Positions 8,715-55,218 of a stretch of 64,000 nucleotides of DNA are shown in pieces. The notes beneath the pieces are model-generated. The model saw nothing but the letters and a program-made list of their open reading frames with translations. It searched no databases and was not told where the DNA came from. The position numbers and the translations under genes are program-made. Every line of letters begins with the position of its first letter. Positions within the stretch are counted from its first letter, which is position 1. This DNA is from Candidatus Yonathbacteria bacterium RIFCSPLOWO2_01_FULL_43_27 (GTDB lineage: Bacteria; Patescibacteriota; Minisyncoccia; Phycocordibacterales; UBA1550): contig MHUV01000006.1 of assembly GCA_001823545.1 (NCBI GenBank), forward strand, positions 27,437 to 91,436, in the 5' to 3' direction.

Positions 8715-8756
8715 GACCACGACCGGACCGCCAGTATTTTTTGTTTAGCAACACAT

Positions 8757-8793
8757 AGCCCTCACTCTCCGGAGTGAGGGCTATTAATTTTTT
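8757..8793 (+). terminator. Rho-independent terminator (AGCCCTCACTC-TCCG-GAGTGAGGGCT + ATTAATTTTTT)
   Basis: 11-bp perfect GC-rich stem followed by a T-rich tract on the + strand. Confidence 0.7.
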
Positions 8794-10828: not shown

Positions 10829-12622
10829 TTAGTGACTATGGTGTTTATTATTTACCTTGTAAAAATATGAATCTTTATCTTGCAATAAATCCTGCGGCTT
10901 CCCTTCCTCTTCAATCATTCCTTCTCTTAAAACTAAAAGTTTGTCCACGTTCATAATAGTAGAGAGGCGGTGAGCGATGATAAACACCGTCACCGTTCCA
11001 TGGAGTTCGTTAATAGCCTTTTGAACCAAGAGTTCCGATTCATTATCCAAAGCGCTTGTCGCTTCATCAAGCACCAAGATTTCCGGTCGACGAGCAAGCA
11101 CCCGCGCTAAGGCAATTCGCTGTCGTTGTCCAACAGAAAGCATTACTCCTTTATCTCCAACAATCGTATCAAATCCTTCAGGTAGGCCCACGATAAAATC
11201 ATAGATATGCGCCTGTTTTGCGGCTCTTTCAATATCTTCTTGCGAGAGTGTGTTCTCGTAAAACTGGATATTGTGACGTATTGTTTCATTGACGAGGAAA
11301 ATATCTTGCGAAACGTAGCCAATGCGCGAACGCCATTCTCGAAGATCTATGTCTTGAATATTAACACTGTCGAGGGTAATCTCTCCTGCCGTTGGTTTGA
11401 AAAGGCGGAGGAACAGATCTGCTACTGATGTTTTTCCCGCTCCTGACGGTCCAATAAGTCCAATTGTTTCTCCTTTTCTTAGGGTGAAGGTTACATTTTT
11501 TAGAACAGTGTCAGACCCTTGTCCATAAGAAAAACCTACATTGTTAAACTGAAGCGAGGTATTGAACTTGAAAGGGTCGCGCTCTTTAGGTTCGACTTCT
11601 ATATTTTCAACAAGGTCCTTTTTAAAATTAATAACATTCGCCACATACGGCAGAAGCTCGCTCACCGAATGAAGCGCGCCTTGCCCCGACTGTAAATAAA
11701 TAAATATTTTCTGAATGAGATAGAGTGTTGCAGCAAATACGGCTATATTAAAACCTGGAGTTTTATACGCAAATGAAAAAATGATGATAACAAAAACTAC
11801 ACTGAATGGCTGAATAAAGATTGTGCCAAGTGCGTGTACTACAATATTCCGCACATAAAGAGTACGCAAAGACAAAAGAAGCTCCTTTGCTTTCTCAAAA
11901 ACCCTACCTTCTTCTCCTGATGCTTTTACCACCTTAAGTCCGCCAAGATGCTCAGTTATATGATGAGAAAGTTGTTTATCCACGAGGCTCGCTTGCTCAT
12001 TCACTGATTGAGTTTTCTTTACCAGTGGTCGCAAGATATAAACGAGAGCTACGCCAGCAGCAAGAGTAACAAGCGTAATCCTTGGGGATATACTGAGTGC
12101 GAAGACTAAATAAATAATGAGTCCACTAAACGACTGGATAATCTGTGTAAAAACATCTAAAAGATTTGCACTACGACGCACATCGGACACGACCGTGTTT
12201 TGCACATATCCTATTTTTTGCCTTAAAAGAAATGGCCAACGAGCACTGAACGTTGCCGATAAAATATCCGCCATTTCCGCATTAATGAATTCTGCTCCAA
12301 TGCGTGCGCGCACATAGGTAAATATCCCAAGAATAAACGCTCTCCCGATAAAAAGCGCTGCGACCATTGCCAAAAGATATCTGAAACTGAATGGTATTGA
12401 GAAAAAATCAAAAAAAACTTTTATGGTCTGGGAAATGGCACTGTTCTCCACCTGACTACCGTTTCCCAAGAGAAAAGACAGGGCGGGAATAACCGCACCC
12501 ACCCCAATACCTTCCAATATCCCTCCAAAAAAACCGAGAGCAACGAGAAGGATGACTTGGGCCTTGTATCGACCGAAAACATATTTAAAAATAGTAATTA
12601 ACCTAATCTTGTCTTTTTTCAT
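10829..12622 (-). CDS. ABC transporter permease/ATP-binding fusion (MsbA-like exporter)
   Basis: Six-TM domain, then Walker A GPSGAGKTS, signature LSVGQRQRIALARVL, Walker B LVLDEATSALD. Confidence 0.9.
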   Translation of the reverse strand: MKKDKIRLITIFKYVFGRYKAQVILLVALGFFGGILEGIGVGAVIPALSFLLGNGSQVENSAISQTIKVFFDFFSIPFSFRYLLAMVAALFIGRAFILGIFTYVRARIGAEFINAEMADILSATFSARWPFLLRQKIGYVQNTVVSDVRRSANLLDVFTQIIQSFSGLIIYLVFALSISPRITLVTLAAGVALVYILRPLVKKTQSVNEQASLVDKQLSHHITEHLGGLKVVKASGEEGRVFEKAKELLLSLRTLYVRNIVVHALGTIFIQPFSVVFVIIIFSFAYKTPGFNIAVFAATLYLIQKIFIYLQSGQGALHSVSELLPYVANVINFKKDLVENIEVEPKERDPFKFNTSLQFNNVGFSYGQGSDTVLKNVTFTLRKGETIGLIGPSGAGKTSVADLFLRLFKPTAGEITLDSVNIQDIDLREWRSRIGYVSQDIFLVNETIRHNIQFYENTLSQEDIERAAKQAHIYDFIVGLPEGFDTIVGDKGVMLSVGQRQRIALARVLARRPEILVLDEATSALDNESELLVQKAINELHGTVTVFIIAHRLSTIMNVDKLLVLREGMIEEEGKPQDLLQDKDSYFYKVNNKHHSH

Positions 12623-12741: not shown

Positions 12742-13752
12742 CTATAGCTTCGCAACGATATGTTTCGCGAGTTCATGCATCCTGATGCCCGACCCCTCGT
12801 TGTAAAAATACCCGAAGAGATGAATGATGTCACCTACAACCTCGATTTCATCTTCGACGATTACCATCGAGTAGGGAGACCCAATATGGGCTCCAGGCCC
12901 GTTGTCTACAGACACCATTCCGATAAGACCGTCGAGACGACCACTCTTCCCGACTGCCTCTTTGAGCACACCAACCGCTTCTTCTCTTGTCACGGGTTTT
13001 TCAACCCGGAACGCGAAATCAATGATTGACGCACCTGCCCATGGGATAACGGTGTACTTCACTGCAATCTTTCCGTTAAGAAACGGTAACAACTGCGGCG
13101 CCATCCGCTCCAATGTGCAAAACTTACGCTGAAGAGTCTGCGTCTCGCTATAAAGGAGACGATGCTCCTGCACATTATGGATAACGTGCACGGTGCATCC
13201 TACGACGCAGAACATGTCGTTCATTGTTGCCGTAAGCACTACGCCAGGGTTGACTGTACATGAGCCGTACGATACAACCTTGTGTTTCGTGGGGTCAAAA
13301 CTCTCGTGGTTATACCCCATAACAAGCGTTGCATCGGCGTCATAGCAGGTCGCTGACACAATGACCGTCTTGGTCTTACCGACCAGAAACGGCCTACATA
13401 GATCTGCTCCCGATGACCGCCCCCCTGAACACTCGAAGAAAATTCCCGGTTCACCAAGCCATCCCGCCCTTTCTGCAGGGCCACTCGAGATAGAGATGTG
13501 TTCTGTCCTTCCGTCCGGTGCCTGAATCATCAAGACTGTTCCCGTTAACACAATTTTGCATTTCCGGAAACCAGTTACCAGTGAATCACTTTTGATGATT
13601 GAGGAAATCTTCTCCGGTGTTAACTGTTCATCATTGATAAACCCAATCCGGTACGGCGCATGGCGGTCGTTAAACCACCACCATAACAAGTTGAGGGCGA
13701 AGCGCCCAAAACCGTTCATTCCGACCAAAACCCTGTTATCCTCTTTAGGCAT
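12742..13752 (-). CDS. Glyceraldehyde-3-phosphate dehydrogenase-family NAD-dependent dehydrogenase (divergent)
   Basis: N-terminal VLVGMNGFGRFALNLL (Rossmann, GAPDH-like), catalytic-Cys region SYGSCTVNPG (compare SxxSCTTNC), C-terminal FYNEGSG (compare YDNEWGYS). Confidence 0.5.
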   Translation of the reverse strand: MPKEDNRVLVGMNGFGRFALNLLWWWFNDRHAPYRIGFINDEQLTPEKISSIIKSDSLVTGFRKCKIVLTGTVLMIQAPDGRTEHISISSGPAERAGWLGEPGIFFECSGGRSSGADLCRPFLVGKTKTVIVSATCYDADATLVMGYNHESFDPTKHKVVSYGSCTVNPGVVLTATMNDMFCVVGCTVHVIHNVQEHRLLYSETQTLQRKFCTLERMAPQLLPFLNGKIAVKYTVIPWAGASIIDFAFRVEKPVTREEAVGVLKEAVGKSGRLDGLIGMVSVDNGPGAHIGSPYSMVIVEDEIEVVGDIIHLFGYFYNEGSGIRMHELAKHIVAKL

Positions 13753-13820
13753 AATAGCCCTCCTTTTTTATATGGTACTTCTAAATATAGAATAACACAT
13801 ATTTAATCAAAACACAAGGG

Positions 13821-15056
13821 CTACGCAGGGATAGTTTCTATATGAAGCGTGTCACGAATTTTATTTTCAAGGGCAAGTAATTGTTCGTAAGTATCTGTCA
13901 CGCACGTAATAAAGTTGGTACGGGTTGCTGAATGTATGTACGGCTTCACCATATCCCCCTCTTTAACAAGGAGAGTGATGTCGGCAACACCGGGAATTGC
14001 TAGGGCTTCATCAAGTCCTGATATTTTTTTCACAATACCTGGTTCTGGGAAAATAGCAAAGGTGGAAGACCATTTCACCCATCGAGGAATGAGATCGAGA
14101 GGGTCAAGTGGCTGACCAAGCGCAATATCCATGGTCGCCTTCATAAGGTCAATCCCGAACGAAAGTGGTTTGCGAAGTTGTGAATCATGTCCACCCGAGG
14201 TACGCGCAGTTATTTCAATAATCTCCACCTCTCCAGTATCATCCCGTACAATAAGATCCCCTTTAAATGCACCATCAGAAATACCAACTGCCTTCGCAGC
14301 ATCTCTCATTTTTCGATACATCTCATCTTGAGTTGCCGCAGGAAGAAGCGACGGGGTTCGCGACCCCGACTGCACCGCGTATGCTTCCTTTGTTTGAAAA
14401 ACTCTGTCAGAAATACCTGCAGGATAAAGAACTCCATTATATAAAATTGTGTCGACGCTGTATTCAATGCCAGTGATTTCTTTTTCAATCAGAACAGCTT
14501 TTTCTATAAAGCATGCATTGAGAGCATCTTCTATCGCCTTACTCAGCCCTGCCGAAGAGGTGAGTCGCGTCATGCCACGTGATGCTGAATTGTCTATCGG
14601 CTTCACATAACAAGGGTACCCAACACGAGCGACCAGAGTATCGGCATCTGCCAAACTTTCCACAACGACAAACGGAACTTTGCTCACACCATGTTCTGTA
14701 AGAAGGCGGCGTGTACGTACTTTATTATTACAATTAAAAGCGCTCTCGGGGTCAATTCCCGGAAGTCCCGCGGCGTGAGCCGCAAGAGCCACAATATGTT
14801 CAACATCGGCTCCTTGTGTATACACGCCTTGAATCTTTCCCTGAGAAGCCAGATCCTTGGCAAGTGTGGCAATTCCATCAGCGTCCCTCGTGCTAATCAA
14901 ATAAAAATGATCAGCGAGATTGCGGGCGGCACAGTGCTCGGAACCATCAACGAGATATGTTTCTATACCAAGCTCCCGAGCCCGCTTAAGCGCAAATGTC
15001 TGGAGAATACCACCACTTACCACCAGTAATCCTTTTTTTATTTCTGTTCCAGCCAT
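13821..15056 (-). CDS. ATP-grasp domain ligase
   Basis: ATP-grasp architecture (pre-ATP-grasp domain, then NCNNKVRTRRLL...GYPCYVKPIDNSASRGM, and so on). The start is set at the internal Met (MAGTEIKK) to avoid a 97-nt overlap with the upstream gene. Confidence 0.65.
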   Translation of the reverse strand: MAGTEIKKGLLVVSGGILQTFALKRARELGIETYLVDGSEHCAARNLADHFYLISTRDADGIATLAKDLASQGKIQGVYTQGADVEHIVALAAHAAGLPGIDPESAFNCNNKVRTRRLLTEHGVSKVPFVVVESLADADTLVARVGYPCYVKPIDNSASRGMTRLTSSAGLSKAIEDALNACFIEKAVLIEKEITGIEYSVDTILYNGVLYPAGISDRVFQTKEAYAVQSGSRTPSLLPAATQDEMYRKMRDAAKAVGISDGAFKGDLIVRDDTGEVEIIEITARTSGGHDSQLRKPLSFGIDLMKATMDIALGQPLDPLDLIPRWVKWSSTFAIFPEPGIVKKISGLDEALAIPGVADITLLVKEGDMVKPYIHSATRTNFITCVTDTYEQLLALENKIRDTLHIETIPA

Positions 15057-15706
15057 TGATAGAAATGCTGCATCGTTGTAAAGGAGAGTACCTCCAGTGG
15101 CAACGGCACGCTTTGTTCGTTCCCAATATAACACGCAATAGAACCAACAGCAAGCGCGCCTTCGATATCTTTTATAAGATGATCGCCCACATAGAGAAGT
15201 TCGTGAGGAAGGATTCCCTCCTCTTTAATGCACATATTAAAAAAGGCAGGGTCTGGCTTTTGATGTTCATCCCCATAGTAAATAAAATCGCACAATTCAC
15301 TGAAACCTGCGCGCACAATTCTCTGTTCCTGATAACTCTTCAATCCATCAGTAATGATGCCGATACGAAACCCTTTTTGCTTAAGCAGTTTAATAACTTC
15401 TCGCGAATACTCGTTCACATACTCCTTGTCACCCTGTTCCTTACGGAAAGAACTGATCAGTGAATCTTTGTAGTCCTCGGGCAACCCCAACACGCAGAAC
15501 GTGTCGTCTAGATGATTTTTATATTTATACCCTTTTGCTTCAAAAATCGAAAAGAACGTCTTTTGAAGATCGGGGTGCATGTGAGAAAAATTCTCAAGAG
15601 TTTTCTGCCATCGGTGTCGCACCAGAGACTGCTCATCCACAAGCGTTTGGTCAAAATCAAAAGCTACAACTTTTATAGTTGAGAAAAATTCATGTGGTGA
15701 TCGCAT
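15038..15706 (-). CDS. HAD-superfamily hydrolase (phosphatase)
   Basis: Motif I VVAFDFDQTLVDE (DxD), motif IV GDHLIKDIEGA. The start is set at the internal Met, giving a 4-nt ATGA overlap with the downstream gene. Confidence 0.7.
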   Translation of the reverse strand: MRSPHEFFSTIKVVAFDFDQTLVDEQSLVRHRWQKTLENFSHMHPDLQKTFFSIFEAKGYKYKNHLDDTFCVLGLPEDYKDSLISSFRKEQGDKEYVNEYSREVIKLLKQKGFRIGIITDGLKSYQEQRIVRAGFSELCDFIYYGDEHQKPDPAFFNMCIKEEGILPHELLYVGDHLIKDIEGALAVGSIACYIGNEQSVPLPLEVLSFTTMQHFYQWLEQK

Positions 15707-15710
15707 AATA

Positions 15711-16628
15711 TTATTTTTTGCGTGCAATAATAATGAATTCTCTACCAATCCCTTGTGTTCCAAGTGTTCTGTATATCGAATTCAATAGTATGCTGTTCTC
15801 TCGATAAAGATTCATTTCAAACTCTTTTCGCTCACGATGACATTCCCTCCCGAGCGCTGAATCTTTCACATAGTTTTTCCCTGAAAGAAGGAAGAATTCC
15901 ATGGGGAACGTACTGAGACTTTCCTTAACTTCAAATCCAGTTTTAGAAAGTAAGTTTCCCATCGAATTGGCATCAAAATAATTGAGGTGATGTGTTGGCA
16001 CAACCCACCATGGCTTAAATTTAAGCTTCTTCTGCAGTATTTCCTGCAAAGGATTGTAATCATTAGGACAAAAAATCGCAATAATACCATTCGGCTTTAA
16101 CAACTTCTTCATATCCTCGATAAAAGTAGCTGGATTCGGAACGTGTTCAAGGACCATACTTGCATGAATAACATCAAAAGGTCCGTACTGTTTCGCAGAC
16201 TCATAGCTAAAAAAATCATTTACCACTGCGAGCTTGCGACGTTTAGAATATTCCCATGCGTCAACAGAAGGCTCCAACCCGAGAACATCCCATCCTCGCT
16301 TCTTGCCACACACCAAAAAATGTCCAGGGCCAGAGCCAACATCTAAAATTTTTCTTCCTTTAGTGTACGTCTCTAAGAGAGTGTAGTAATTATTGTACGT
16401 TGCCATCCACCACGAAAGATCCTCCTTTGTTTCTTTAAAATAATTCGGTTTTCCCTTTGAGTAGAACTCTTCTTCGTAAAACTTTGCAAGCTCTTCTTCG
16501 GAAGGAATTGGATTAACATGTTTAAAGCCACACGAAATACATTCGATAATCGAAACACCTTCCTTCTTGTCCAGTATTTTTCCTTTATGTATTATTTTTT
16601 TCATTTTGTTTCTAAAAAATCCTCCCAA
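15711..16628 (-). CDS. Class I SAM-dependent methyltransferase
   Basis: Motif I ILDVGSGPGHFL, and a Zn-ribbon-like C..C N-terminus. Confidence 0.8.
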   Translation of the reverse strand: MGGFFRNKMKKIIHKGKILDKKEGVSIIECISCGFKHVNPIPSEEELAKFYEEEFYSKGKPNYFKETKEDLSWWMATYNNYYTLLETYTKGRKILDVGSGPGHFLVCGKKRGWDVLGLEPSVDAWEYSKRRKLAVVNDFFSYESAKQYGPFDVIHASMVLEHVPNPATFIEDMKKLLKPNGIIAIFCPNDYNPLQEILQKKLKFKPWWVVPTHHLNYFDANSMGNLLSKTGFEVKESLSTFPMEFFLLSGKNYVKDSALGRECHRERKEFEMNLYRENSILLNSIYRTLGTQGIGREFIIIARKK

Positions 16629-17743
16629 GTAATCGGCGCGCGAGCCTTAATGGCGCGGAGTACTTTTTTCCCAATGACAAGCCCTGCATCTTTTGGCGCG
16701 ATACCTCCCCATGGACGAAGGGTGATAATCATATCCTCAGTCAGGAGTGACCCTGCGGGAATATCTCGTATAGCATAGAGCGAGCGACGCGCCCACCTAT
16801 CCGCAATCTCGTCCTTGCCTAATGCATGATCCTCACCAGAAACAGGTTGCTTGATGCCCACTCTTGAAAGCGCCTGCTCAGCGTTACGAATTTCCTCAAC
16901 CGTGCGTTTAAAATCATCAATCTCGAGAGAATTAAGATCATCATTACTTCCTCCATCTCGTTCCGTAGTAAAGTGCTTCTCTATGACACACGCACCAAGT
17001 GCCACCGCAGCAATAGGAGCAGCGAGAAATGGGGGCTTGGAATGATCAGAATACCCGACAGGAAGTTTAAACGCCTCCTCAAGTGTTTCTATAGCACGAA
17101 GATTTAGATCAGCAAAACTTTTTGGCGGGTAAATTGAAATGCAGTGGAGCAAAATAATCTCATTGTTCCCCTCTTCTTGGATCACGCGCACTGCGTGTGC
17201 GACTTCTTCTAGATACGCCATGCCAGTCGACAAAATGATTGGTTTTCCCTTTCGCGCAATATATCGCAAGAGAACATCATCAGTCATTTCATACGATGCA
17301 ATCTTAAATGCTGGCACTCCTGCCGTCTCAAGAAAATCAGCGGCATCTTTATCAAACGGAGACGAGAGAAACATAATATTATGTTTCTTTGCATGAGCAA
17401 TGAGTTTATCTGTCCACTCAAATGGGATCTCGGCCGACCGATAAAATTCCGAAAATGCACCCACGGGTTTCCCGTGCCATTCTTCATATACAATAGTATC
17501 CGCAGCAATTTTATCATGCGTCAAATGCTGAAACTTTATCGCATCTGCACCCGCCTCAGCAGCAAGCTCTATTGATCTAAGTGCCTCCTCAATTTTACCT
17601 CGATGATTTGCCCCTACTTCAGCAATAACGAACACCGGTTGACCCTTACCCACCAGCCTGTTGCCGATGGTAACCACCTCTACCGGCTCATAGGTAAGGT
17701 TTTTTGGCAAGCTCTCAAAAAATTGTTTTCTTTCTATTCCCAT
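16601..17743 (-). CDS. Nonulosonic acid synthase, NeuB/PseI family (TIM barrel + C-terminal SAF domain)
   Basis: VFVIAEVGANHRG...GADAIKFQ is diagnostic of NeuB-family sialic/pseudaminic/legionaminic acid synthases. The C-terminal SAF domain is present. Confidence 0.85.
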   Translation of the reverse strand: MGIERKQFFESLPKNLTYEPVEVVTIGNRLVGKGQPVFVIAEVGANHRGKIEEALRSIELAAEAGADAIKFQHLTHDKIAADTIVYEEWHGKPVGAFSEFYRSAEIPFEWTDKLIAHAKKHNIMFLSSPFDKDAADFLETAGVPAFKIASYEMTDDVLLRYIARKGKPIILSTGMAYLEEVAHAVRVIQEEGNNEIILLHCISIYPPKSFADLNLRAIETLEEAFKLPVGYSDHSKPPFLAAPIAAVALGACVIEKHFTTERDGGSNDDLNSLEIDDFKRTVEEIRNAEQALSRVGIKQPVSGEDHALGKDEIADRWARRSLYAIRDIPAGSLLTEDMIITLRPWGGIAPKDAGLVIGKKVLRAIKARAPITWEDFLETK

Positions 17744-17802
17744 ATTATGTTCAATATCTTTACTATACTACAAGAAAGACGATTCTGTGCAAACCCATCA
17801 AT

Positions 17803-19269
17803 TTATACCTCTCTCTCCAATTTATCCTCGCGTGCAGTCCCCTGTTTCCCATATTCGCCATGTATTACCATTGCAGTCCCCCGTTCTTCGTTTTGCACGC
17901 GTTTTAAATATGCAGGACTTTTTTTTACCGTATCAATAATTTCTATAAACTTTTTATCCCGATAGGGTAAAATAGACTCTGCAGCAGTGAACTGCACCTG
18001 CACGCCTCGAAGTTTACATTCGTTTACGATGCGCTTTGTTTCAGCGTCGGGTTGCATCAATGTTTCAAAATGTTCGTACATCGCACGCACACGTGGAATA
18101 TGGTATTCATTTGTAATAAACACGACACACCTCAATCCTCTCTCGTGAACAATTTTCATCGTTTCGCCAATCTGAGAAAGTGTGTCTGTCGACTGCTCTT
18201 CTAGAATGATTCTATTTCGCAGAATTGAAAGTTGTTCCAATTCATTCTGAAAAACAGTCGCCTGTGCTTGCTCAGGGTGATGTGCGCCCGTTGCTATAAT
18301 CATTGCTTTAGGGAAGAATCCTGCCAATTCCGCAACAGCCAGAACACGCGCCTCTCCCCACAGGATACCAAAAGCATCCCCCTCATCAGTTCGCGTAGAA
18401 CGATACTTAGTCACCCCATCCTGCGTCACCTCTTTTACGATACCTCCGGATATCAATACGATTGCATCAGGTTCAAAACCAACCACACGTTCATAGAGAT
18501 CGTGCTTTTGTTGAAACTGTTCATCTTCTTTTAATGATTTATGATATCCTTCATACCCCGTTCCACCAACATTAATCGAGTGTAATTCAGGCTTTTCCGA
18601 CAAAAGGTTGAGCACCTCATCTTTTGAAAAAACCGAGTTTTGAGGATAGAGGTTCTCAAAAATTTTCGTAACAAAAATAAAATCTTCAGGAGTATCCACC
18701 GACCAATGCATTGCAGAAAAATCCTCAACACCACTCTGCCATGCTCGCACACGAAACATCTCCGGATGGTTATACACATACGGTGTTACATGTTCACGTT
18801 CTGACGGCTTCACTGCCTCTTTCCATGCCCGCTCAAGCGTGCTAAATGAAAAGATTTCCATATCAAGCCCTTCGGGATAATTGGATGGTTTTGAGGCATA
18901 ATCAACGTCCGTAGCATTCTTCAAAAAATACTCTATCGTTTCATCGATGACCTTTGGGTCGGAGAGTGGGCAATCCCCTGTTACCCGAACGACAATATCC
19001 GCCTGTGCTTCTCGTGCCGCTTGGTAGTAACGATCGAGAACATCTGATTCACTCCCTCGGAAACATTCTACACCAGCCTCCTGCGCCATGCGTGCAATAA
19101 TGTCATCTTCGTCCTTAATCGTGGTTGCAACAACAACCCTATCAACAAACCGTGATTGCTTCACTCTCTCAATTTGATGCACGAGCATCGGTTTCCCGAG
19201 AATAAGTTTCGAGACTTTTCCCGGTAGTCGTGTTGAACCCATTCTTGCTTGGATGATGCAGACGATCAT
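17803..19269 (-). CDS. Acylneuraminate (CMP-nonulosonate) cytidylyltransferase-family protein fused to a ~250-aa C-terminal domain of uncertain family (DUF218/YdcF-like pattern)
   Basis: N-terminus MIVCIIQARMGSTRLPGKV (CTP_transf_3 / PseF / SpsF-like). The C-terminal half has VLISGG...TDTLSQIGETMKIV. Confidence 0.65.
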   Translation of the reverse strand: MIVCIIQARMGSTRLPGKVSKLILGKPMLVHQIERVKQSRFVDRVVVATTIKDEDDIIARMAQEAGVECFRGSESDVLDRYYQAAREAQADIVVRVTGDCPLSDPKVIDETIEYFLKNATDVDYASKPSNYPEGLDMEIFSFSTLERAWKEAVKPSEREHVTPYVYNHPEMFRVRAWQSGVEDFSAMHWSVDTPEDFIFVTKIFENLYPQNSVFSKDEVLNLLSEKPELHSINVGGTGYEGYHKSLKEDEQFQQKHDLYERVVGFEPDAIVLISGGIVKEVTQDGVTKYRSTRTDEGDAFGILWGEARVLAVAELAGFFPKAMIIATGAHHPEQAQATVFQNELEQLSILRNRIILEEQSTDTLSQIGETMKIVHERGLRCVVFITNEYHIPRVRAMYEHFETLMQPDAETKRIVNECKLRGVQVQFTAAESILPYRDKKFIEIIDTVKKSPAYLKRVQNEERGTAMVIHGEYGKQGTAREDKLEREV

Positions 19270-19285
19270 ATATTTAATACAATGA

Positions 19286-20278
19286 CTAAATTTTTGTAAC
19301 TGCCTTTATCTTATCACTAAGGAGGAGCTTCACGACCCGTTCGCCGGCGTGAATATCGAGAGAATGTTTTACGGACCCGTCTTTTATTAATTGTACAAAA
19401 TGCTTCAACTCTTCGACATATCTCTTGTTTGGCTCAAAAGAATATTTTTGCACCAAGGATTGCTCCCCTGGAAGCTCCACCGTGATTTCATGTGCTATAA
19501 AATCAACCTCTATCGTCCCCTTTTCCCCAACGACGACCATGTAACTCTTTGATATTCTCTGCAAAAAATCTGTTTGGCACATCACCACAATATTGCGATC
19601 CGTCTTCATGAGACAAAAAACGCTATCGTCTACGTCCATTTCCAAATCGCTCAGCCGTGCTCTCCATCCTGAGAGTTCTTCTATCTCGCCAAAGAGCCAC
19701 CCCATAGAATCAAACAAATGACTCATACTGGTAAACAGCGCGCCACCACCGAGTTTCTTCTGCGCCGCATATTCTGTTCGGTAATCCATCGTCGGATGCC
19801 AGTCCGGTAAATACTGACCACTCAACAAGTTCACGTGATAGATCTCTCCTATCACACCATCTTCAAAAAGTTTCTTCACAGACAAATAACCCTCATGGAA
19901 TCTATACGATTGCCCCATCATTACCACGACATTTTTTGACTCAATTGTTCTTATGAGGTCATCTATTCCCTCAAACGCCGTAGCAAGTGGCTTTTCAATA
20001 AAAATATGTATTCCTTTCTCGGCGAGGAATTGTGCATTTTCAATATGAAATTGAGACGGCGTGGCGATTATTGCTGCAGTAATCTCAGGATTGTCTTCAC
20101 ACGCTTTTTTGTAATCCTCATAAAACTTTTCTGAATCTGTTTCCTCGGCAAGTTTTTTGGCGCGCTCAATATCGACATCACACACAATCGTACGCAAACC
20201 CAAAAAGCGCGCATTCTGCGCATGTCGACGGCCAATTGATCCGGCACCAATAATAAGAAATATCCCTTCCATATTCAT
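19286..20278 (-). CDS. Gfo/Idh/MocA-family NAD(P)-dependent oxidoreductase
   Basis: N-terminal Rossmann LIIGAGSIGRRHAQN, and a C-terminal Gfo/Idh/MocA domain. Confidence 0.8.
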   Translation of the reverse strand: MNMEGIFLIIGAGSIGRRHAQNARFLGLRTIVCDVDIERAKKLAEETDSEKFYEDYKKACEDNPEITAAIIATPSQFHIENAQFLAEKGIHIFIEKPLATAFEGIDDLIRTIESKNVVVMMGQSYRFHEGYLSVKKLFEDGVIGEIYHVNLLSGQYLPDWHPTMDYRTEYAAQKKLGGGALFTSMSHLFDSMGWLFGEIEELSGWRARLSDLEMDVDDSVFCLMKTDRNIVVMCQTDFLQRISKSYMVVVGEKGTIEVDFIAHEITVELPGEQSLVQKYSFEPNKRYVEELKHFVQLIKDGSVKHSLDIHAGERVVKLLLSDKIKAVTKI

Positions 20279-20280
20279 AT

Positions 20281-21618
20281 CTAGTTTAACCGAGCGAATC
20301 CAGTGTGGGCTACCGGACCTCTCAGGCGTTTTTCGACCGTATTCGTATCAAGAGCCTCTTTCAAGATTTTGAATACTTCATCGACGGCCTTTTCGTACTT
20401 CTTTAAAATTGCATCCGTGTGTGCATAACTCGCAAAAACCATATTTGAAGCAAGAAACCCTCTCTGGAGCATCTCTTGAATGAACAGAGTTTTAAGTGCT
20501 TGATGTTTATCGCCATGCGCAAAGGTAAAATTACTAAATGGAGGTAGACCACCAGTTGTAATAGATAGACCATTCTTTTTAGCCTTATCGCTCCAGATTT
20601 TTTTGACCTTATTCCCAATAATTTGAAGCTTTTTCGCAACATTCAATCGTTTCATTTTTTTCAATGTTGCAAGCGCCGCCACAGGACCGAGTCTTTCTGT
20701 CCAGTTGGTGCTGGAAATAAATGTTACCTGTGCTGACTGCATTACTTCACGAGTACCGATGATTGCCGCCATCGCAAAACCGTTGCTGATAGCTTTTGCA
20801 AAAACTGCGATGTCAGGGTTAACACCATATAAGAGATGTGATCCTCCAAAATTCATCTTCCAACCGATACTCACTTCATCAAAAATAAGGACTGCGCCCG
20901 TCTTGTCTGCGATAGCGCGAACTTTCTTGAGAAAATCATCCTTAGGCTCCGCATTTTTCATCGGCTCTAAAACAATGACGCCTAACTCTTTGCCATGATT
21001 TGCCACAATATCCTCAAGCTCTTCAATGTGGTTAAAATGGAAAGGAAGTAAGGTACCTTTCAACCCACGTGGCACACCGCGTGGCTCTAGGCCAGGGAGA
21101 AGGTGCCCATCTAGGTTTTTATCATCAGACAAATTTGCCGAAAGATACCAATCAGCCCAGCCATGATACCCACAAAAAGCAACTTTATCTTTGCCTGTAA
21201 AAGCTCTCGCGATACGGATTGCGATAGCCATCGCCTCTCCTCCAGATCGAGCATACCTGACCATTTTTGCCCAAGGGTGAATTTTACAAAGCATTTCAGC
21301 AAGCTCCACTTCCTCAGGTGCGTTCAGGGTTGAGACCACCCCATTGTCAATTGCCTTTTTTACTGCCTTGTTGACATCAGAGTCAGCATAACCAAGGAGA
21401 GAACTCCCCACGCCCATAATAGACATATCAATAAATTTATTCCCATCCAAATCCCACACTTCAGCACCTTTAGCTTTTGTGTAATAGGATGGCCATCCAT
21501 TTGGAAGAAACATTTCAGAACGCTTGGAAAGAAGCTGATTCCCTCCAGGAATTATTTGCTTTGCTTTTTCCCAAAGTGCCTGTCCTTTTTTTGTACTTAC
21601 TATTTTTTGTTTTTTCAT
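20281..21618 (-). CDS. Class III PLP-dependent aminotransferase (GSA-aminomutase-like)
   Basis: ARSGGEAMAIAIRIARAFTG...; PLP-lysine region FDEVSIGW... typical of class III aminotransferases. Confidence 0.8.
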   Translation of the reverse strand: MKKQKIVSTKKGQALWEKAKQIIPGGNQLLSKRSEMFLPNGWPSYYTKAKGAEVWDLDGNKFIDMSIMGVGSSLLGYADSDVNKAVKKAIDNGVVSTLNAPEEVELAEMLCKIHPWAKMVRYARSGGEAMAIAIRIARAFTGKDKVAFCGYHGWADWYLSANLSDDKNLDGHLLPGLEPRGVPRGLKGTLLPFHFNHIEELEDIVANHGKELGVIVLEPMKNAEPKDDFLKKVRAIADKTGAVLIFDEVSIGWKMNFGGSHLLYGVNPDIAVFAKAISNGFAMAAIIGTREVMQSAQVTFISSTNWTERLGPVAALATLKKMKRLNVAKKLQIIGNKVKKIWSDKAKKNGLSITTGGLPPFSNFTFAHGDKHQALKTLFIQEMLQRGFLASNMVFASYAHTDAILKKYEKAVDEVFKILKEALDTNTVEKRLRGPVAHTGFARLN

Positions 21619-21628
21619 ATTTTTTAAA

Positions 21629-22768
21629 TTACAACTGTTTGTTTATTTCTCTGATTACCTTGATTATTTTAGTCTGATCTTTTTGAGAAAGAGCAGGGAA
21701 AATAGGTATGGAAATTTCTGATTCTGAAAATAGTTCAGCATTTGGACAAAGACCTTTTTTATACCCCCGCGCCTCATAGTACGGATGCCGGTAAACCGGG
21801 ATGTAGTGCACTTGAACGCCGATCCCCGCTTTCTGTAACTCATTAAAGCAGAAATCCCGCAGGTGTTTCTTTTCGGGAGCGAGGCGCAATGGAAATAAGT
21901 GCCAACTTGAAGTGCGATCGGAAAACGTTTTTGGTATGACAAAATTCTGAAGATTTTCTAACTCTTTCTGATAGCGATGTGCGATCTCTCCCCTTCTCGA
22001 TACAAAAAAATCCAATTTCTTCATCTGGCTCACCCCTAACGCAGCTTGAATATCAGTGATACGATAATTGTATCCCAGATCATGCATTTCATGGTACCAT
22101 GCGGGATTTTTTTTGTTAATAAGTTTCTTTGTATCCTTAGTGATGCCGTGACTGCGAAACAGCAACAATTTCTCGTAGTACTCCTTATTATTTGTGACAA
22201 TCGCTCCTCCTTCGCCCGTTGTGATTGATTTCAATGGATGAAAACTGAACATTGTCATATCGGCATGTGCGCCGACTTTTTTCTTTCCATACGACGCACC
22301 CAATGCATGCGCCGCGTCTTCAATAAAAACTAGCTTGTGCTTTTTTGCGATCTTCTTGAGTGCAGAAATATCCACCGGCAATCCCGCATAGTCAACTCCG
22401 ACAATCACTTTTGTTCTCTTAGTTATCTTTTTTTCTACGGTGCGTGGATCAAGATTACCCGTTGCAATTTCGATGTCAGCAAAAACAGGGACTGCTCCTA
22501 CAGCAACCAACATGTTTGCAGTAGCCGCAAACGTAAGTGGCGACGTGATCACCTCATCACCCGCATGGAGACCAGCCGCATAATACGCAGCATGGAGCGC
22601 TGCCGTGCCGGAAGAGAACGAAACGGCATATGTTGAGCCACAATACTGTGCAATTGATTCTTCAAATTCTTTGACCTTTGGACCCTGCGTAATAAACGGT
22701 GACTTCAAAACCTTTATAACTTCTTGAATATCATCTTTATCAACCCATTGGCGCGAATATGGAATCAT
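21629..22768 (-). CDS. DegT/DnrJ/EryC1/StrS-family sugar aminotransferase (PseC-like)
   Basis: FSFHPLKSITTGEGGAIVTNN is the family signature around the PLP lysine. Confidence 0.85.
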   Translation of the reverse strand: MIPYSRQWVDKDDIQEVIKVLKSPFITQGPKVKEFEESIAQYCGSTYAVSFSSGTAALHAAYYAAGLHAGDEVITSPLTFAATANMLVAVGAVPVFADIEIATGNLDPRTVEKKITKRTKVIVGVDYAGLPVDISALKKIAKKHKLVFIEDAAHALGASYGKKKVGAHADMTMFSFHPLKSITTGEGGAIVTNNKEYYEKLLLFRSHGITKDTKKLINKKNPAWYHEMHDLGYNYRITDIQAALGVSQMKKLDFFVSRRGEIAHRYQKELENLQNFVIPKTFSDRTSSWHLFPLRLAPEKKHLRDFCFNELQKAGIGVQVHYIPVYRHPYYEARGYKKGLCPNAELFSESEISIPIFPALSQKDQTKIIKVIREINKQL

Positions 22769-23748
22769 ATCTTCAATATCTTTTTGACATCTTTTACAGG
22801 AAGAAGAAAATCTGGGCTATCACTGCTATATACAGCCTCCAACGGGAAGTGTTTTTTATTTGCAAAAGAATTTTTGGTAGCCCAGCTTACAAACTCAGGC
22901 AAAATAGCAAACATCGTTCCGAGGTCTCTCGTGCGATCAGACTCATGTTTAGTAAGGAGTTTTTCATGAAGCTTTTCACCAGGGCGGATACCGACAACCT
23001 TCAATTTACACTCAGGGGCAAGTGTCTTTAAAACATCTACAACTTGCAAACTCTTCATCTTTGGAATAAAAATCTCTCCACCTTCCATGTGATCAAGAAT
23101 ATTGATAACCATCTCCATAACATCCTGTATATGGATCCAGAAACGAGTCATGCGCTCGTCAGTAAGAGTCAAAACTCCGGTGGCACGCTGTTTTTCAACA
23201 AGCTCGATAACACTTCCTCGACTGCCGATGACATTTCCATATCGGACGACCGAAAGCTTTGTATTTCCTTTGCCTCGGTATGAGTTTGAAGCGACAGTTA
23301 ATCGTTCAGCGACAAGTTTTGTTGCACCATAAAGATTGATCGGCTCAACTGCTTTGTCGGATGACACAACGAGCACCTTATCGACTTCACAGTTAACTGC
23401 GGCATCCACCACATTTTGCGTTCCATTAATGTTTGTCTTGACCGCTTCAAGGGGATTATATTCAGTAGCAGGAACCTGTTTCAAGGCGGCAGCATGGATC
23501 ACAATATTAACGCCCGAAAATGCTCGTTCCAATCTTGGTAAATCGCGGACATCACCCAAAAAGAAGTTTAGTCTTTTATCCTTAAAATCACGCGACATTT
23601 CATTCTGCTTAAATTCATCTCTGCTTAGGACGATGACTTTCGCCACGCTTTTGTTTGCAAGAATTCGCGTTACAAAAGCGCGCCCAAACGTGCCCGTTCC
23701 GCCTGTTACCAAGATCGTTTTACCACTTAAATAATCTTTTTTATTCAT
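22765..23748 (-). CDS. pseB: UDP-GlcNAc 4,6-dehydratase (inverting), PseB/FlaA1/CapD-like SDR
   Basis: LSGKTILVTGGTGTFGRAF...VIVLSRDEFKQNEM...FFLGDVRD matches PseB/FlaA1 closely. A 4-nt overlap with the downstream aminotransferase suggests an operon. Confidence 0.8.
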   Translation of the reverse strand: MNKKDYLSGKTILVTGGTGTFGRAFVTRILANKSVAKVIVLSRDEFKQNEMSRDFKDKRLNFFLGDVRDLPRLERAFSGVNIVIHAAALKQVPATEYNPLEAVKTNINGTQNVVDAAVNCEVDKVLVVSSDKAVEPINLYGATKLVAERLTVASNSYRGKGNTKLSVVRYGNVIGSRGSVIELVEKQRATGVLTLTDERMTRFWIHIQDVMEMVINILDHMEGGEIFIPKMKSLQVVDVLKTLAPECKLKVVGIRPGEKLHEKLLTKHESDRTRDLGTMFAILPEFVSWATKNSFANKKHFPLEAVYSSDSPDFLLPVKDVKKILKI

Positions 23749-23779: not shown

Positions 23780-25696
23780 TCAATCTCTCAATGCCTCGAG
23801 AAAAACGGCCGTACGTTCGGCAGATTTTCCATCAAAAGAGAAGTTCTTTTTAAGGAAATTATTTGCATTATTAACAAGAGTTACTGCTTCGGCAGGGTTC
23901 GAAACAAGCGTACGCATACACTGAACAAGTTCCTCTTTTGTTCTTGCAATTCGTAGAGCGCACGCCTCCTCATACGGTAGAAAATGTGATTCCATCAGCA
24001 CGAGGTCATTCTTATCAAAACCGACGAGGACAACCGGTTTTTCCGCAATCATCGTCTCAAGAACAACGGTTGAAAAACTGGAAGCAACAACGTTAGCAAT
24101 ACTTATCAATTCATGCAGGTTTTCATATTGGGCGATACAACACCTTTCACCAAATGCCTCCTTGAGGGAGCGCTTGAGAAAATATTCTGTAGCGGGTCCC
24201 GGGCGTATTTTTATGATCACTTGCAGTCCTTCGATGCACCTGGTTGCCTCAGCAATATTTTTGAACAGACGAAGCATACTATAGGTGTCATGCGTCTGTC
24301 CCAAAACGATATCCGTGGCGATATACAAAAGAACCGGCCGTTCAGGATCAATATTAAGCTTTTTTCTCAGTTTACTTTTTATCTCCTCACTAATCGTTTT
24401 ATTTCGATACTGATCAAAGCGAGGTGAGCCAATATCAAGAACTTTTAAATTAGTGCCATGTACACCCTCTATTTCTTTTTTGATTAAAGGTCCATACGAA
24501 GCAAGGGTGTCCGCATTTTTATATACGCTCAAAGAAAACTCCCCTGAACATTCCAGCCCATGCTGTAATTCTATGGCAGGAATACTCATTTTGTGTGCAA
24601 CAAGACCAAGTATAGGAAAATGGATCTGCCCACTCTGGCTTGCTCTCAAGATAACCGAACCTATTCCTTGTTTCTTAAAAATTCGCTCAGTCGCTTCTAT
24701 CGCCTCTACGGTATCTTTAGAAAATGAAGTCACCAGATGTTCGTATGCTGGACGGACAACTTCCCAAAAATTTATTCCGTACCACATAAATTGTTGAGAA
24801 AAACGTGAATGTTCATCGAGCGTCTGCCACATTTGTTCATAGAATTGACGCTTCTTTTCCGCACGATGTCGCATAAAGATAGTGGAATAGTCTCGCGGAT
24901 GATTGAAACGGATCTTATACTTCCAAAGATACTCCCTAGCGTTTTGTACCTCTTTGCGTTCCATCATAGTGACCTCAACGTCATTCATTTTTGTAATAAA
25001 TGAATCAATATGCCACCAATAATCACTCACAAAAATTTTCATCGCGGTTCGCTTACGAAAGAGTGCGATAATACTACTAAAGATCTTGATCAATCGAATA
25101 AAAACGCCTCTCGTGAATGATTGTTTGAACCTGCGCAATCCGCCCCGCAATATCACGTCCGGCGTACACGGAATAATATGCAGTGATATTCCTTTCTTCT
25201 GCGCCAAAAACGCCATCATGTCTATACCCACACGAACCTCAAAAATCGCCAATTGACCGACCGTTGAAGGTAGCTTCATTAACGATTCCGGAATGTAGAC
25301 TGTTTCTATATTTTTAAATTGCCCGAGAATAAAATCGAATATGTCCAAGTGGTACAAAACCCTGAGCACGTACTCCCCGAAAGAATAGCCAATTATTTTG
25401 CCGAGGTGTATGCCGTTATGTTCAAAAAAATTAAATTCAGCGTCAGTATACATCTGTCGCATTATTCCTGAGACCAGTAGACCTCGCTCTTTAAGCGAAC
25501 TTCTCGCAGAATAATCCATCATAGAATGGAAAGGTATCCCTCGATCACGCAATGCAAGTTCAATTCCGTAATCAATGGGAACAATGACAGGACCGTGTCC
25601 ACTTTTAATTTTTTCGGCGCCAAAGTGTGCGAGCACAATATCAATGTGTCCTATTTCATAGAGAATAATCAGTGTTTTTCCATTAGTTGTATTCAT
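23780..25696 (-). CDS. Large (638 aa) putative glycosyltransferase. Possibly a nonulosonic acid transferase (GT-B-like C-terminal half). Family unresolved.
   Basis: C-terminal VVASSFSTVVLETMIAEKPVV resembles GT-B/TagF/KpsS-like nucleotide-sugar binding. Immediately adjacent to the nonulosonate cluster. Confidence 0.35.
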   Translation of the reverse strand: MNTTNGKTLIILYEIGHIDIVLAHFGAEKIKSGHGPVIVPIDYGIELALRDRGIPFHSMMDYSARSSLKERGLLVSGIMRQMYTDAEFNFFEHNGIHLGKIIGYSFGEYVLRVLYHLDIFDFILGQFKNIETVYIPESLMKLPSTVGQLAIFEVRVGIDMMAFLAQKKGISLHIIPCTPDVILRGGLRRFKQSFTRGVFIRLIKIFSSIIALFRKRTAMKIFVSDYWWHIDSFITKMNDVEVTMMERKEVQNAREYLWKYKIRFNHPRDYSTIFMRHRAEKKRQFYEQMWQTLDEHSRFSQQFMWYGINFWEVVRPAYEHLVTSFSKDTVEAIEATERIFKKQGIGSVILRASQSGQIHFPILGLVAHKMSIPAIELQHGLECSGEFSLSVYKNADTLASYGPLIKKEIEGVHGTNLKVLDIGSPRFDQYRNKTISEEIKSKLRKKLNIDPERPVLLYIATDIVLGQTHDTYSMLRLFKNIAEATRCIEGLQVIIKIRPGPATEYFLKRSLKEAFGERCCIAQYENLHELISIANVVASSFSTVVLETMIAEKPVVLVGFDKNDLVLMESHFLPYEEACALRIARTKEELVQCMRTLVSNPAEAVTLVNNANNFLKKNFSFDGKSAERTAVFLEALRD

Positions 25697-53418: not shown

Positions 53419-53422
53419 TTTT

Positions 53423-55206: not shown

Positions 55207-55218
55207 TATAACTGAGAC

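Follow-up and report, generated by a model that had tools for sequence, protein, structure and literature searches.

What would an operon for a sialic-acid-like sugar need a relative of glyceraldehyde-3-phosphate dehydrogenase (GAPDH) for? The question is raised by a block of ten genes at positions 12742–23748 of a 64-kb stretch of DNA (the window) from Candidatus Yonathbacteria, a lineage of Parcubacteria in the candidate phyla radiation (CPR) from Rifle groundwater, in whose annotation the GAPDH-like gene is a "hypothetical protein". The original prediction had seen in this block a pseudaminic acid (Pse)-type pathway joined by unusual tailoring enzymes, and had suggested that a GAPDH-type dehydrogenase and a phosphatase could supply a glycerate-type acyl group for ligation to the sugar amine. 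We analyzed the ten genes and their relatives by profile searches and comparative genomics. The gene content suggests an operon that directs the synthesis of a sialic-acid-like surface sugar, in which a HAD phosphatase, an ATP-grasp ligase, and the GAPDH-like dehydrogenase belong to a tailoring module that is conserved across bacteria and archaea. A literature search on the module enzymes and on nonulosonic acid, Pse, and flagellin glycosylation, with subscription-only papers outside its coverage, found no description of this module.

Gene Organization and the Pse-Type Core

As listed in table 1, the block consists of ten co-directional open reading frames (ORFs), separated by gaps of at most 68 bp or overlapping by a few bases. 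This is the layout that the original prediction had described, and Pfam and NCBIfam profile searches of the ten ORFs confirmed each of its gene assignments, with all ORFs found at the coordinates it gave. Gene callers favored shorter starts for four of the genes (ATP-grasp ligase, 15056; HAD phosphatase, 15706; methyltransferase, 16604; cytidylyltransferase, 19242). The ten-gene set was found in identical order on at least 23 independent metagenome contigs, and nine of the ten families, all but the methyltransferase, recurred, differently ordered, in an unrelated bacterium (locus L019); thus, the arrangement is not a product of chance. A strong sigma-70-like match (TTGACC, 17-nt spacer, TATAAT; a match to the consensus only) lies at 23783–23755, in the 31-bp gap before pseB. 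Shuffled sequence gave such matches at least as often as the region did, and we therefore take this one as at most a hint of where the transcription unit starts.

The Pse-type nature of the core, as originally predicted, was borne out by PseB and PseC, both of which scored above the equivalog cut-offs of the Pse pathway models (table 1); pseC overlaps pseB by 4 bp. For the NeuB-family synthase, the best NCBIfam model was PseI (TIGR03586, 315.1 bits; cut-off 340.25), followed by NeuB (293.2 bits; cut-off 399.65), and the DAHP synthase models gave at most 36 bits. Its matches in the PDB were Bacillus subtilis SpsE (223 bits), pseudaminic acid synthase (218 bits), and Neisseria meningitidis NeuB (144 bits). 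Judged by these scores, the synthase appears closest to PseI/SpsE and clearly distinct from KDO8P and DAHP synthases, the families against which the original prediction had proposed that it be checked. The cytidylyltransferase belongs to the CTP_transf_3 family, is named SpsF by JGI, and matches PDB entry 6oew, a cytidylyltransferase, at 141 bits; with the PseF model TIGR03584, it reached 42.8 bits against a cut-off of 205.7. Its additional C-terminal domain, which had been noticed from the sequence, proved to be DUF218 (Pfam match at aa 304–405 of a domain that spans about aa 271–488). In the related clusters L008, L019, L073, and L077, DUF218 is encoded by a separate gene.

Table 1. Genes of the ten-gene block and of its flanks, with the profile matches (bits) on which each assignment is based
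Feature	Positions	Strand	Evidence
PseB, inverting UDP-GlcNAc 4,6-dehydratase (first gene of the block)	22765..23748	-	TIGR03589 416.3 (cut-off 407.75); Pfam Polysacc_synt_2 313
PseC, UDP-4-amino-4,6-dideoxy-N-acetyl-beta-L-altrosamine transaminase	21629..22768	-	TIGR03588 500.8 (cut-off 423.5)
Class III (pyridoxal-phosphate) aminotransferase, glutamate-1-semialdehyde-aminomutase (HemL)-like	20281..21618	-	PF00202; PRK06209 268.9 and GntE 225, both below cut-off
Gfo/Idh/MocA NAD(P) oxidoreductase, aminotransferase partner	19286..20278	-	PF01408 and PF22725
CMP-nonulosonate-type cytidylyltransferase, SpsF-like, fused to DUF218	17803..19269	-	PF02348 134.7 (aa 3–226); PF02698 50.5
NeuB-family nonulosonate synthase with SAF domain, PseI/SpsE-like	16601..17743	-	PF03102 265.8, SAF
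Class I S-adenosylmethionine-dependent methyltransferase, N-terminal Cys-rich (Zn-ribbon-like) segment	15711..16628	-	PF13489 (Methyltransf_23) 91
HAD-IA phosphatase, first triad member	15038..15763	-	PF13419 82.9; TIGR02253 100; DxD motif FDFDQT
ATP-grasp carboxylate-amine ligase, L-amino-acid-ligase type, second triad member	13821..15134	-	PF13535 43; PF18603 LAL_C2 61
GAPDH-superfamily dehydrogenase, third triad member	12742..13752	-	TIGR01534 95.8 (cut-off 367.2)
TagF/TarL-like GT-B protein, 638 aa, candidate CMP-nonulosonate transferase	23780..25696	-	PF04464 43
ABC exporter, fused transmembrane and nucleotide-binding domains, downstream of triad	10829..12622	-	PF00664 and PF00005
Wzy_C (O-antigen-ligase-like) membrane protein, C-terminal TPR	8822..10780	-	PF04932 74.9, TPR

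A Conserved Tailoring Module

The relatives of the module were surveyed from two sides. On the GAPDH-like side, scanning one genome per species gave 61 loci (best match 46% identical); on the ATP-grasp side, 83 metagenome loci were reduced to 62 non-redundant ones at 90% identity. The order HAD, ATP-grasp, GAPDH-like was found in L008, L023, L028, L065, L067, and L071; L034/L059 and L039 show it with fusions. The three genes usually lie beside those for NeuB, a DegT aminotransferase, and a CMP-transferase. Carriers of this triad included a second CPR lineage (L008), Peribacteria, Patescibacteria, Woesearchaeota, SAR86, Pelagibacteraceae, and Prochlorococcus. In the unrelated bacterium with locus L019, the triad occurs with PseB, PseC, the aminotransferase, Gfo, the cytidylyltransferase, DUF218, and NeuB. 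In the 62 metagenome loci, the gene after the ATP-grasp gene encoded a GAPDH-like protein in 27 (fused in 1) and a PdxA-family protein in 26, the other 9 being contig ends or truncated ORFs; the gene before it encoded the HAD protein in 39 of the 62 (fused in 2).

Fusions tie the three proteins together as well. ATP-grasp orthologs at E ≤ 1e-30 numbered 160, of which 5 were fused to a GAPDH-like domain; ATP-grasp–GAPDH-like fusions were found in L039 and in protein clusters P0205, P0206, P0212, P0217, and P0222, HAD–ATP-grasp fusions in P0224 and P0234, and a GNAT–HAD–ATP-grasp fusion in the Woesearchaeota loci L034/L059. These fusions link the triad proteins pairwise, and their domain order equals the gene order. 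Thus, HAD, ATP-grasp, and GAPDH-like proteins constitute a conserved tailoring module across bacteria and archaea. The original view that the odd enzymes form one set with the core was upheld by this synteny across phyla and by the fusions, and the triad genes did not turn out to be scattered housekeeping genes.

The HAD protein of the window has the HAD fold, and the DxD nucleophile motif was seen in its translation. We considered and rejected a role as a nonulosonate-9-phosphate phosphatase: similarity to N-acylneuraminate-9-phosphatase is weak (35–37 bits), and a 9-deoxy sugar has no 9-phosphate. The ligase, whose family is automatically named "biotin carboxylase", combines the ATP-grasp fold with the C-terminal domain of L-amino acid ligases and has L-amino acid ligase BL00235 as its best PDB match (84 bits); its gene context suggests that one of its substrates is a sugar amine. 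Methyltransferases homologous to that of the window stand at the same position in L073, L080–L083, L075, and L077. The most complete counterpart outside the CPR, L019 (12997–16329), additionally encodes a PylC-like second ATP-grasp protein, an APH-family kinase, and a second HAD protein, a hint that this variant includes an additional step of phosphorylation and ligation.

The GAPDH-Like Dehydrogenase

The GAPDH-like protein (OHA82474.1) belongs to a family of hundreds of members with 40–80% identity. A profile built from 20 family sequences (profile A1) gave at most 130 bits with the GAPDHs in the PDB, compared with 248–771 bits for family members against the window protein. To assign residue states, the family profile was aligned to the GAPDH of B. 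stearothermophilus, and states were counted over 58 members. The equivalents of the catalytic-site residues Cys149 and His176 (C165 and H192) were kept in all 58, as was Ser148; Thr150 was kept in 57 and the Arg195 equivalent in 53, and an extra Cys212 is invariant in the family. The Thr179 equivalent was P, Q, A, V, or L, never Thr or Ser, and the Arg231 equivalent was V, I, C, or A, each in 58 of 58. The inorganic-phosphate (Pi) loop with Thr208-Gly209 is absent: the hidden Markov model alignment has a ten-residue gap at IIPTSTGAAKA, and the segment around the loop is 23–26 aa long in every member, about 10 aa shorter.

These residue states suggest that the thioester chemistry is retained and that the inorganic-phosphate site is gone, along with most of the site that binds the C3 phosphate of glyceraldehyde 3-phosphate (G3P). 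Because the family keeps the Cys and His residues but has lost Arg231, Thr179, and the Pi loop, we infer a non-phosphorylating reaction on a substrate other than canonically bound G3P. With the Epd model TIGR01532, the window protein scored 52.7 bits against a cut-off of 530.55, below the Epd equivalog level; an Epd-like activity is possible. The G3P-type GAPDH of the original prediction had to be given up, as Arg231, Thr179, and the Pi loop are absent from all 58 relatives, and a housekeeping GAPDH was likewise rejected on score (95.8 against 367 bits), on the lost phosphate residues, and on locus context. Members of the family (P0008, P0015, P0027, and others) are automatically named "glyceraldehyde 3-phosphate dehydrogenase", a naming that could inflate the calls of glycolysis in metabolic reconstructions of the reduced genomes of CPR bacteria and DPANN archaea.

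PdxA2-Type Replacement of the Dehydrogenase

In about half of the distinct metagenome loci, the slot of the GAPDH-like gene is taken by the PdxA-family gene (L072, L074, L087, L090, L092, L100–L110, and L124–L154). The replacing dehydrogenase matches D-threonate-4-phosphate dehydrogenase (PdxA2) at 270 bits compared with 169 bits for Escherichia coli PdxA, and the ATP-grasp ortholog, about 50% identical, is kept in these loci. A low-identity subgroup of them (41–44%) is without the HAD gene; upstream, proteins of about 710 aa and about 120 aa are encoded instead. PdxA2 enzymes act on 4-phospho-tetronates and are also able to catalyze the PdxA reaction, and the GAPDH homolog Epd makes a 4-phospho-tetronate from erythrose 4-phosphate. 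Since both PdxA2 and Epd-like enzymes handle 4-phospho-tetronates, the chemistry shared by the two alternative dehydrogenases would be that of phosphorylated C4 acid sugars. An AP_endonuc_2 protein, a member of a family that includes tetronate isomerases, is also encoded in one PdxA-type locus.

These observations bear on the glycerate supply that had been proposed. Its logic of dehydrogenase, phosphatase, and ligase still gives the best fit, but the PdxA2 swap in about half of the loci is better matched by a C4 phospho-tetronate. Thus, given this swap and the association of an aminotransferase with the GAPDH-like variant (see below), we favor a phosphorylated C3 or C4 acid, possibly of the tetronate type, over plain glycerate.

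Other Contexts of the GAPDH-Like Family

GAPDH-like proteins with the same invariant residues were also found in a second context, beside an acyl carrier protein (ACP), an AMP-binding ligase, a phosphatase of the inositol-monophosphatase family, an aminoglycoside-N3-acetyltransferase-like (Antibiotic_NAT) protein, Zn-ribbon methyltransferases or carbamoyltransferases, and a DUF4910/DUF2172/HTH_47 protein. In Magnetofaba, this gene set adjoins a flagellin gene. We take the DUF4910/DUF2172 architecture to be that of the Cj1295 family, which is of the same aminopeptidase-like kind. One dehydrogenase is thus accompanied by either of two unrelated systems for carboxylate activation (an ATP-grasp enzyme, or an AMP-ligase with ACP) and by either of two unrelated phosphatases (HAD, or the inositol-monophosphatase family), which suggests that the product of the dehydrogenase is a carboxylic acid for acylation. 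Cj1295 is an aminopeptidase-like polysaccharide-biosynthesis protein, the loss of which removes 5-N-(2,3-di-O-methylglyceroyl)-Pse from the flagellin of Campylobacter jejuni (PMC3068675). No DUF4910/DUF2172 domain was found in the window ORFs scanned.

Further members of the family lie elsewhere. In cyanobacteria (L013, L016, L018, L026, L030, and L056), GAPDH-like genes stand outside glycan clusters beside a gene for a membrane protein of about 600 aa. The Epd and PdxB enzymes of the vitamin B6 pathway have been reported missing in cyanobacteria (PMC9997740), and the Epd step of the B6 route that depends on 1-deoxy-D-xylulose 5-phosphate (DXP) has been reported absent in cyanobacteria and many other clades. 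In Defluviicoccus and Myxococcota, the GAPDH-like gene is convergent with a PdxA2-like gene (276 bits), again outside glycan clusters; L009, L011, L012, and L050 are among these non-glycan loci. In beta- and gammaproteobacteria (L037, L044–L046, L048, L051, L053, and L066), a small CTP_transf_like (TagD-like) cytidylyltransferase gene precedes the GAPDH-like gene, and the neighborhood includes genes for an uncharacterized protein of about 360 aa and for a large autotransporter-like one.

The Aminotransferase and Oxidoreductase Sub-module

The class III aminotransferase and the Gfo/Idh/MocA oxidoreductase, which the original prediction had rightly listed without giving them a role, are a second conserved sub-module. 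A Gfo or aldo-keto reductase gene was found in 19 of the 23 loci that carry the aminotransferase, and in the locus of the close relative L075 an aldo-keto reductase match was found instead of a Gfo match. Among the 26 long loci, the aminotransferase was present in 13 of the 17 of the GAPDH type compared with one of the nine of the PdxA type (Fisher p = 0.003); the remaining four GAPDH-type loci of this metagenome set, and several genome loci, were without it. In the PDB, the aminotransferase matches HemL and aminoglycoside C-6' aminotransferases, and it is often fused to the cytidylyltransferase.

By analogy, the GAPDH-like protein, the oxidoreductase, and the aminotransferase would mirror Epd, PdxB, and SerC and lead to a 4-phosphohydroxythreonine-like amino acid, which would suit a ligase of the L-amino-acid-ligase family. 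Alternatively, as the cytidylyltransferase fusion suggests, the oxidoreductase and aminotransferase put an amino group on the nonulosonate itself. The window aminotransferase scored 545–561 bits against archaeal CTP_transf_3–Aminotran_3 fusion proteins, a score suggestive of lateral cluster transfer between CPR bacteria and DPANN archaea. Such fusions (675–721 aa), together with a DegT–aldo-keto-reductase fusion (709 aa), recur in L034/L059/L096/L098 (Woesearchaeota type) and in the marine loci L112, L113, and L118–L120.

PseH and PseG

The original prediction was silent on PseH and PseG, the remaining enzymes between PseC and PseI. Neither was found by an NCBIfam scan of the ten block genes and ten flanking ORFs, nor by a Pfam scan of the block and 40 further window ORFs. 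For PseG, the scanned window ORFs gave no match to TIGR03590 or Glyco_tran_28_C, a search confined to the 64-kb window. Profile scans found no GNAT protein inside or adjoining the block; the only PseH-like signal in the window was a RimL-like GNAT at 63250–63801, 40 kb away, with 29 bits against a cut-off of 93. L008 is also without a GNAT. Thus, in these two clusters, no enzyme other than the ATP-grasp ligase would be available to form an amide with the amine that PseC makes, and, with PseH and PseG missing, plain Pse5Ac7Ac could not be made by the block genes alone.

For the removal of UDP in place of PseG, DUF218 is a candidate, admittedly a guess. It recurs in the relatives of groundwater type (the window, L008, L019, the L073 type, L075, and L077); it was absent from the marine and archaeal loci, of which the archaeal ones carry a type I phosphodiesterase instead, and the marine ones, within view, lack this enzyme as well. 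We therefore rejected DUF218 as a general substitute for PseG. The gene for a 288-aa protein after pseC in the marine loci was also considered as a PseG and rejected, as it encodes an aldo-keto reductase. In many related loci, a PseH-like GNAT (39 bits with the PseH model) adjoins the HAD and ATP-grasp proteins or is fused with them.

Proposed Pathway and Alternatives

The explanation that best accommodates these observations as a whole, which we advance tentatively and at somewhat less than even confidence, is that the block makes a CMP-activated Pse-type nonulosonic acid with an amide-linked decoration other than acetyl; the chemistry of this decoration is read from gene anatomy and comparative genomics. 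Judging by equivalog-level homology, PseB and PseC would convert UDP-GlcNAc to UDP-4-amino-4,6-dideoxy-L-AltNAc, and the PseI-like synthase and the SpsF-like cytidylyltransferase, assigned at the family level, would make the nine-carbon acid and activate it. From a phosphorylated C3 or C4 aldehyde, either glyceraldehyde 3-phosphate or, perhaps likelier, erythrose 4-phosphate, the GAPDH-like enzyme would form a Cys-bound thioester and, being without an inorganic-phosphate site, would release the phospho-acid, 3-phosphoglycerate or 4-phospho-tetronate. The ATP-grasp enzyme would ligate this acid to a sugar amine, in the window probably the one made by PseC because no PseH acetyltransferase is present. 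Before or after ligation, the HAD enzyme would remove the phosphate, and the methyltransferase would methylate the product. The Gfo protein and the class III aminotransferase would turn a hydroxyl into a carbonyl and then an amine, either on the acyl unit, in the manner of PdxB and SerC and giving a 4-hydroxythreonine-like residue, or on the nonulosonate.

The simplest chain that covers both gene contexts, oxidation of a phospho-aldehyde to a phospho-acid followed by dephosphorylation, activation, and attachment to an amine, thus ranks first in our reading. Of the scheme as originally drawn, the path from dehydrogenase and phosphatase to an acid and on to ATP-grasp ligation remains the best fit, as relatives with an AMP-ligase, ACP, and N-acyltransferase also indicate; the identity of the acid as glycerate carries over only in part. 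Several points weigh against the chain. The loss of Arg231 and Thr179 removes the very site that holds the phosphate of G3P; 3-phosphoglycerate is abundant, so that a glycerate route needs no dedicated dehydrogenase; and the known chemistry of PdxA2 is an oxidative decarboxylation that destroys the acid, which fits only if the enzyme works biosynthetically or on another substrate. A simple supply of acid does not predict the link of the aminotransferase to the GAPDH-like variant or its fusion to the cytidylyltransferase. In the loci that bear a GNAT, the ligase need not replace PseH, and the acceptor amine may differ. None of the module enzymes has been characterized, and both acid and acceptor are tentative assignments.

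A more specific version, which we regard as rather unlikely as it stands, is that the GAPDH-like family is an unrecognized non-phosphorylating dehydrogenase for erythrose 4-phosphate or a related phospho-aldehyde. The module would then install a tetronoyl (trihydroxybutanoyl) group or, with the oxidoreductase and aminotransferase, a 4-hydroxythreonyl-type group, in either case a new class of decoration for the nonulosonic acids of CPR bacteria, DPANN archaea, and abundant marine bacteria, and the family members outside glycan clusters would possibly provide the missing Epd step of DXP-dependent B6 synthesis.

Other arrangements of the same enzymes were weighed against the acid-supply chain. 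One has the ligase work the other way round, as in the C. jejuni capsule: a small phosphorylated amine (3-amino-2-oxopropyl phosphate or aminopropanediol phosphate) would be joined to a carboxylate of the sugar or glycan and then dephosphorylated by the HAD enzyme. The enzyme classes for this are biochemically known (Cj1437, Cj1438C, and Cj1435), the PdxA-family reaction on 4-phosphohydroxythreonine, which PdxA2 can catalyze, yields such an amine-phosphate, and an aminotransferase that is rare in PdxA-type and usual in GAPDH-type loci fits an amine that is inherited from the substrate in the former and installed by transamination in the latter. It would leave the GAPDH-like dehydrogenase without a role, however, and it fails for the GAPDH-type loci that have no extra aminotransferase (L008, L067, L079, L082, and L086); amidation at C1 of the nonulosonate conflicts with CMP activation unless it follows transfer, profile scans found no uronic-acid pathway in the cluster, and in the AMP-ligase/ACP contexts the product of the GAPDH-like family must be a carboxylate. 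We consider such an amidation unlikely.

Running the dehydrogenase in reverse is another arrangement, and one that we find improbable. Here, the ATP-grasp enzyme would activate an acid, as acyl-phosphate or directly onto the Cys residue, the GAPDH-like enzyme would reduce it to an aldehyde, the HemL-like aminotransferase would produce an amine or amino-ketone, and Gfo or the aldo-keto reductase would adjust the oxidation state, following the logic of Ask/Asd, ArgB/ArgC, and GluTR. The ATP-grasp–GAPDH-like fusions and the strict adjacency of the two genes suit the channeling of a labile intermediate, the missing inorganic-phosphate site is compatible with direct acyl transfer, and the contexts with AMP-ligase, ACP, and GAPDH-like protein resemble the logic of carboxylic acid reductases; moreover, the glutamate-1-semialdehyde aminomutase subfamily of the aminotransferase acts on amino-aldehydes and co-occurs with the GAPDH-like variant. 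Yet a reduction explains neither the phosphatase found in both types of context nor the retention of the ATP-grasp enzyme (about 50% identity) beside a decarboxylating PdxA2-type dehydrogenase. The ATP-grasp enzyme belongs to the amide-forming L-amino-acid-ligase/Ddl group, and the GAPDH-type loci without an aminotransferase (4 of 17 long ones in the metagenome set, several in the genome set) also speak against it. That the block is an ordinary cluster for Pse5Ac7Ac, or for legionaminic or sialic acid, with unrelated metabolic neighbors such as a housekeeping GAPDH, is hardly credible: the automatic names "glyceraldehyde 3-phosphate dehydrogenase" and "biotin carboxylase" would suit it, but the triad order is conserved, with fusions, beside NeuB in CPR bacteria, DPANN archaea, SAR86, Pelagibacter, and Prochlorococcus, and the dehydrogenase's equivalog score and lost phosphate-binding residues, like the missing PseH and PseG, go against it.

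Comparison with Known Systems

Compared with the PseB-PseC-PseH-PseG-PseI-PseF pathway of C. jejuni and Helicobacter pylori, the window shares the PseB and PseC equivalogs, a synthase closest to PseI/SpsE, and a CTP_transf_3 CMP-transferase. It differs in that PseH and PseG were not found in the ORFs scanned, in that the synthase and cytidylyltransferase score below the PseI and PseF cut-offs, and in the DUF218 fusion and six extra enzymes. In the B. subtilis sps genes (SpsC-G and SpsM) for the legionaminic pathway, the likeness lies in the synthase, nearest to SpsE in the PDB, and in the cytidylyltransferase named SpsF; the dehydratase and aminotransferase of the window are of the inverting PseB/PseC type, not the Leg type. 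To our knowledge, the tailoring module is absent from the sps genes.

Glyceroyl-type Pse derivatives, namely Pse5Am7Gra of Tannerella forsythia and di-O-methylglyceroyl-Pse of C. jejuni 11168, carry a hydroxy-acid N-acyl group on Pse, O-methylated in C. jejuni; the genetic basis of the T. forsythia glyceroyl group was stated as open in 2017. The relatives of the GAPDH-like protein that lie beside DUF4910/DUF2172, Antibiotic_NAT, ACP, and methyltransferase genes resemble these systems, whereas the window has no DUF4910/DUF2172 protein, ACP, or AMP-ligase in the ORFs scanned, has an ATP-grasp enzyme instead, and may use a C4 acid. The glucuronamides of the C. jejuni HS:2 capsule are made with the aminotransferase Cj1437 (dihydroxyacetone phosphate to serinol phosphate), the ATP-dependent amidoligase Cj1438C, and the HAD enzyme Cj1435, which acts on the phosphorylated amide (PMC11800397). 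As in the window, an aminotransferase, an amide ligase, and a HAD enzyme share a glycan cluster, and the phosphate serves there as a temporary handle that is removed after ligation. In that system, however, the sugar gives the carboxylate and the small molecule the amine, and there is no dehydrogenase; the likeness is one of enzyme classes.

A further parallel in enzyme classes is provided by the Epd/PdxB/SerC/PdxA (PdxA2) route to vitamin B6 together with tetronate catabolism, in which a non-phosphorylating dehydrogenase of the GAPDH family leads to a 4-phospho-tetronate and is followed by an oxidoreductase and an aminotransferase; in the window, all of these classes lie in one operon. The differences are the Epd model score of 52.7 against 530 bits, the lack of the residues of the substrate-phosphate (Ps) site, an oxidoreductase and an aminotransferase of families other than those of PdxB and SerC, and the glycan setting.

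Flanking Genes and Other Observations

A glycan-synthesis region of about 30 kb surrounds the block. Upstream are genes for the 638-aa TagF-like GT-B protein, a GT9-like protein, GT4 and GT2 transferases, methyltransferases, GtrA, and PMT_2. The C terminus of the GT-B protein matches the BFO_1060 family NF046086 weakly (35.9 bits, below cut-off), a family that contains T. forsythia transferases for Pse/Leg derivatives (PMC5420450); this weak match makes the protein a candidate nonulosonate transferase. Its homologs come after the triad in L079, L081, and L083. As in the window, an ABC gene comes after the GAPDH-like gene in L076 and L078, and the related cluster L008 ends with an ortholog of the Wzy_C/TPR protein (487 bits). 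A hairpin with a perfect 13-bp stem (ATAGCCCTCACTC...GAGTGAGGGCTAT) and a T-run, located at 8755–8784 between groES and the Wzy_C/TPR gene, may mark the end of the glycan transcription unit.

Elsewhere in the window, a full-length Elp3-type radical SAM/GNAT protein (36150–37865, minus strand; TIGR01211 519 bits, cut-off 350) is encoded among glycosyltransferase genes. A possible foreign island is the stretch of low GC content at 52001–56000 (0.31–0.36 compared with about 0.42), which has genes for a histidine-kinase-like ATPase, a methyltransferase, and a FeeM/exosortase-associated-type acyltransferase (TIGR03694 50 bits, below cut-off). We also observed a weak LAGLIDADG-like ORF (41542–42243, minus strand; 27.7 bits), alone beside CTP synthase, and a small protein (3687–4232, minus strand) with the Cas2-like central domain of PaaX (PF20803, 65 bits), downstream of LemA and an M48 peptidase.

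Significance

Nonulosonic acids are key determinants of the cell surface that affect flagellar assembly, recognition by phages and the immune system, and surface charge. Little is known about which enzymes diversify their N-acyl groups, and the module described here is a compact candidate for such chemistry. On present evidence from genes and their neighborhoods, the locus appears to be a variant of nonulosonate biosynthesis with a widespread decoration module, which spans organisms with very small genomes (CPR and DPANN) and abundant marine lineages (SAR86, Pelagibacter, and Prochlorococcus). Its ligase, phosphatase, and dehydrogenase could serve as tools for preparing modified CMP-nonulosonates, and if the C4 reading of the dehydrogenase is true, the GAPDH-like family would also bear on a long-standing hole in vitamin B6 biosynthesis.

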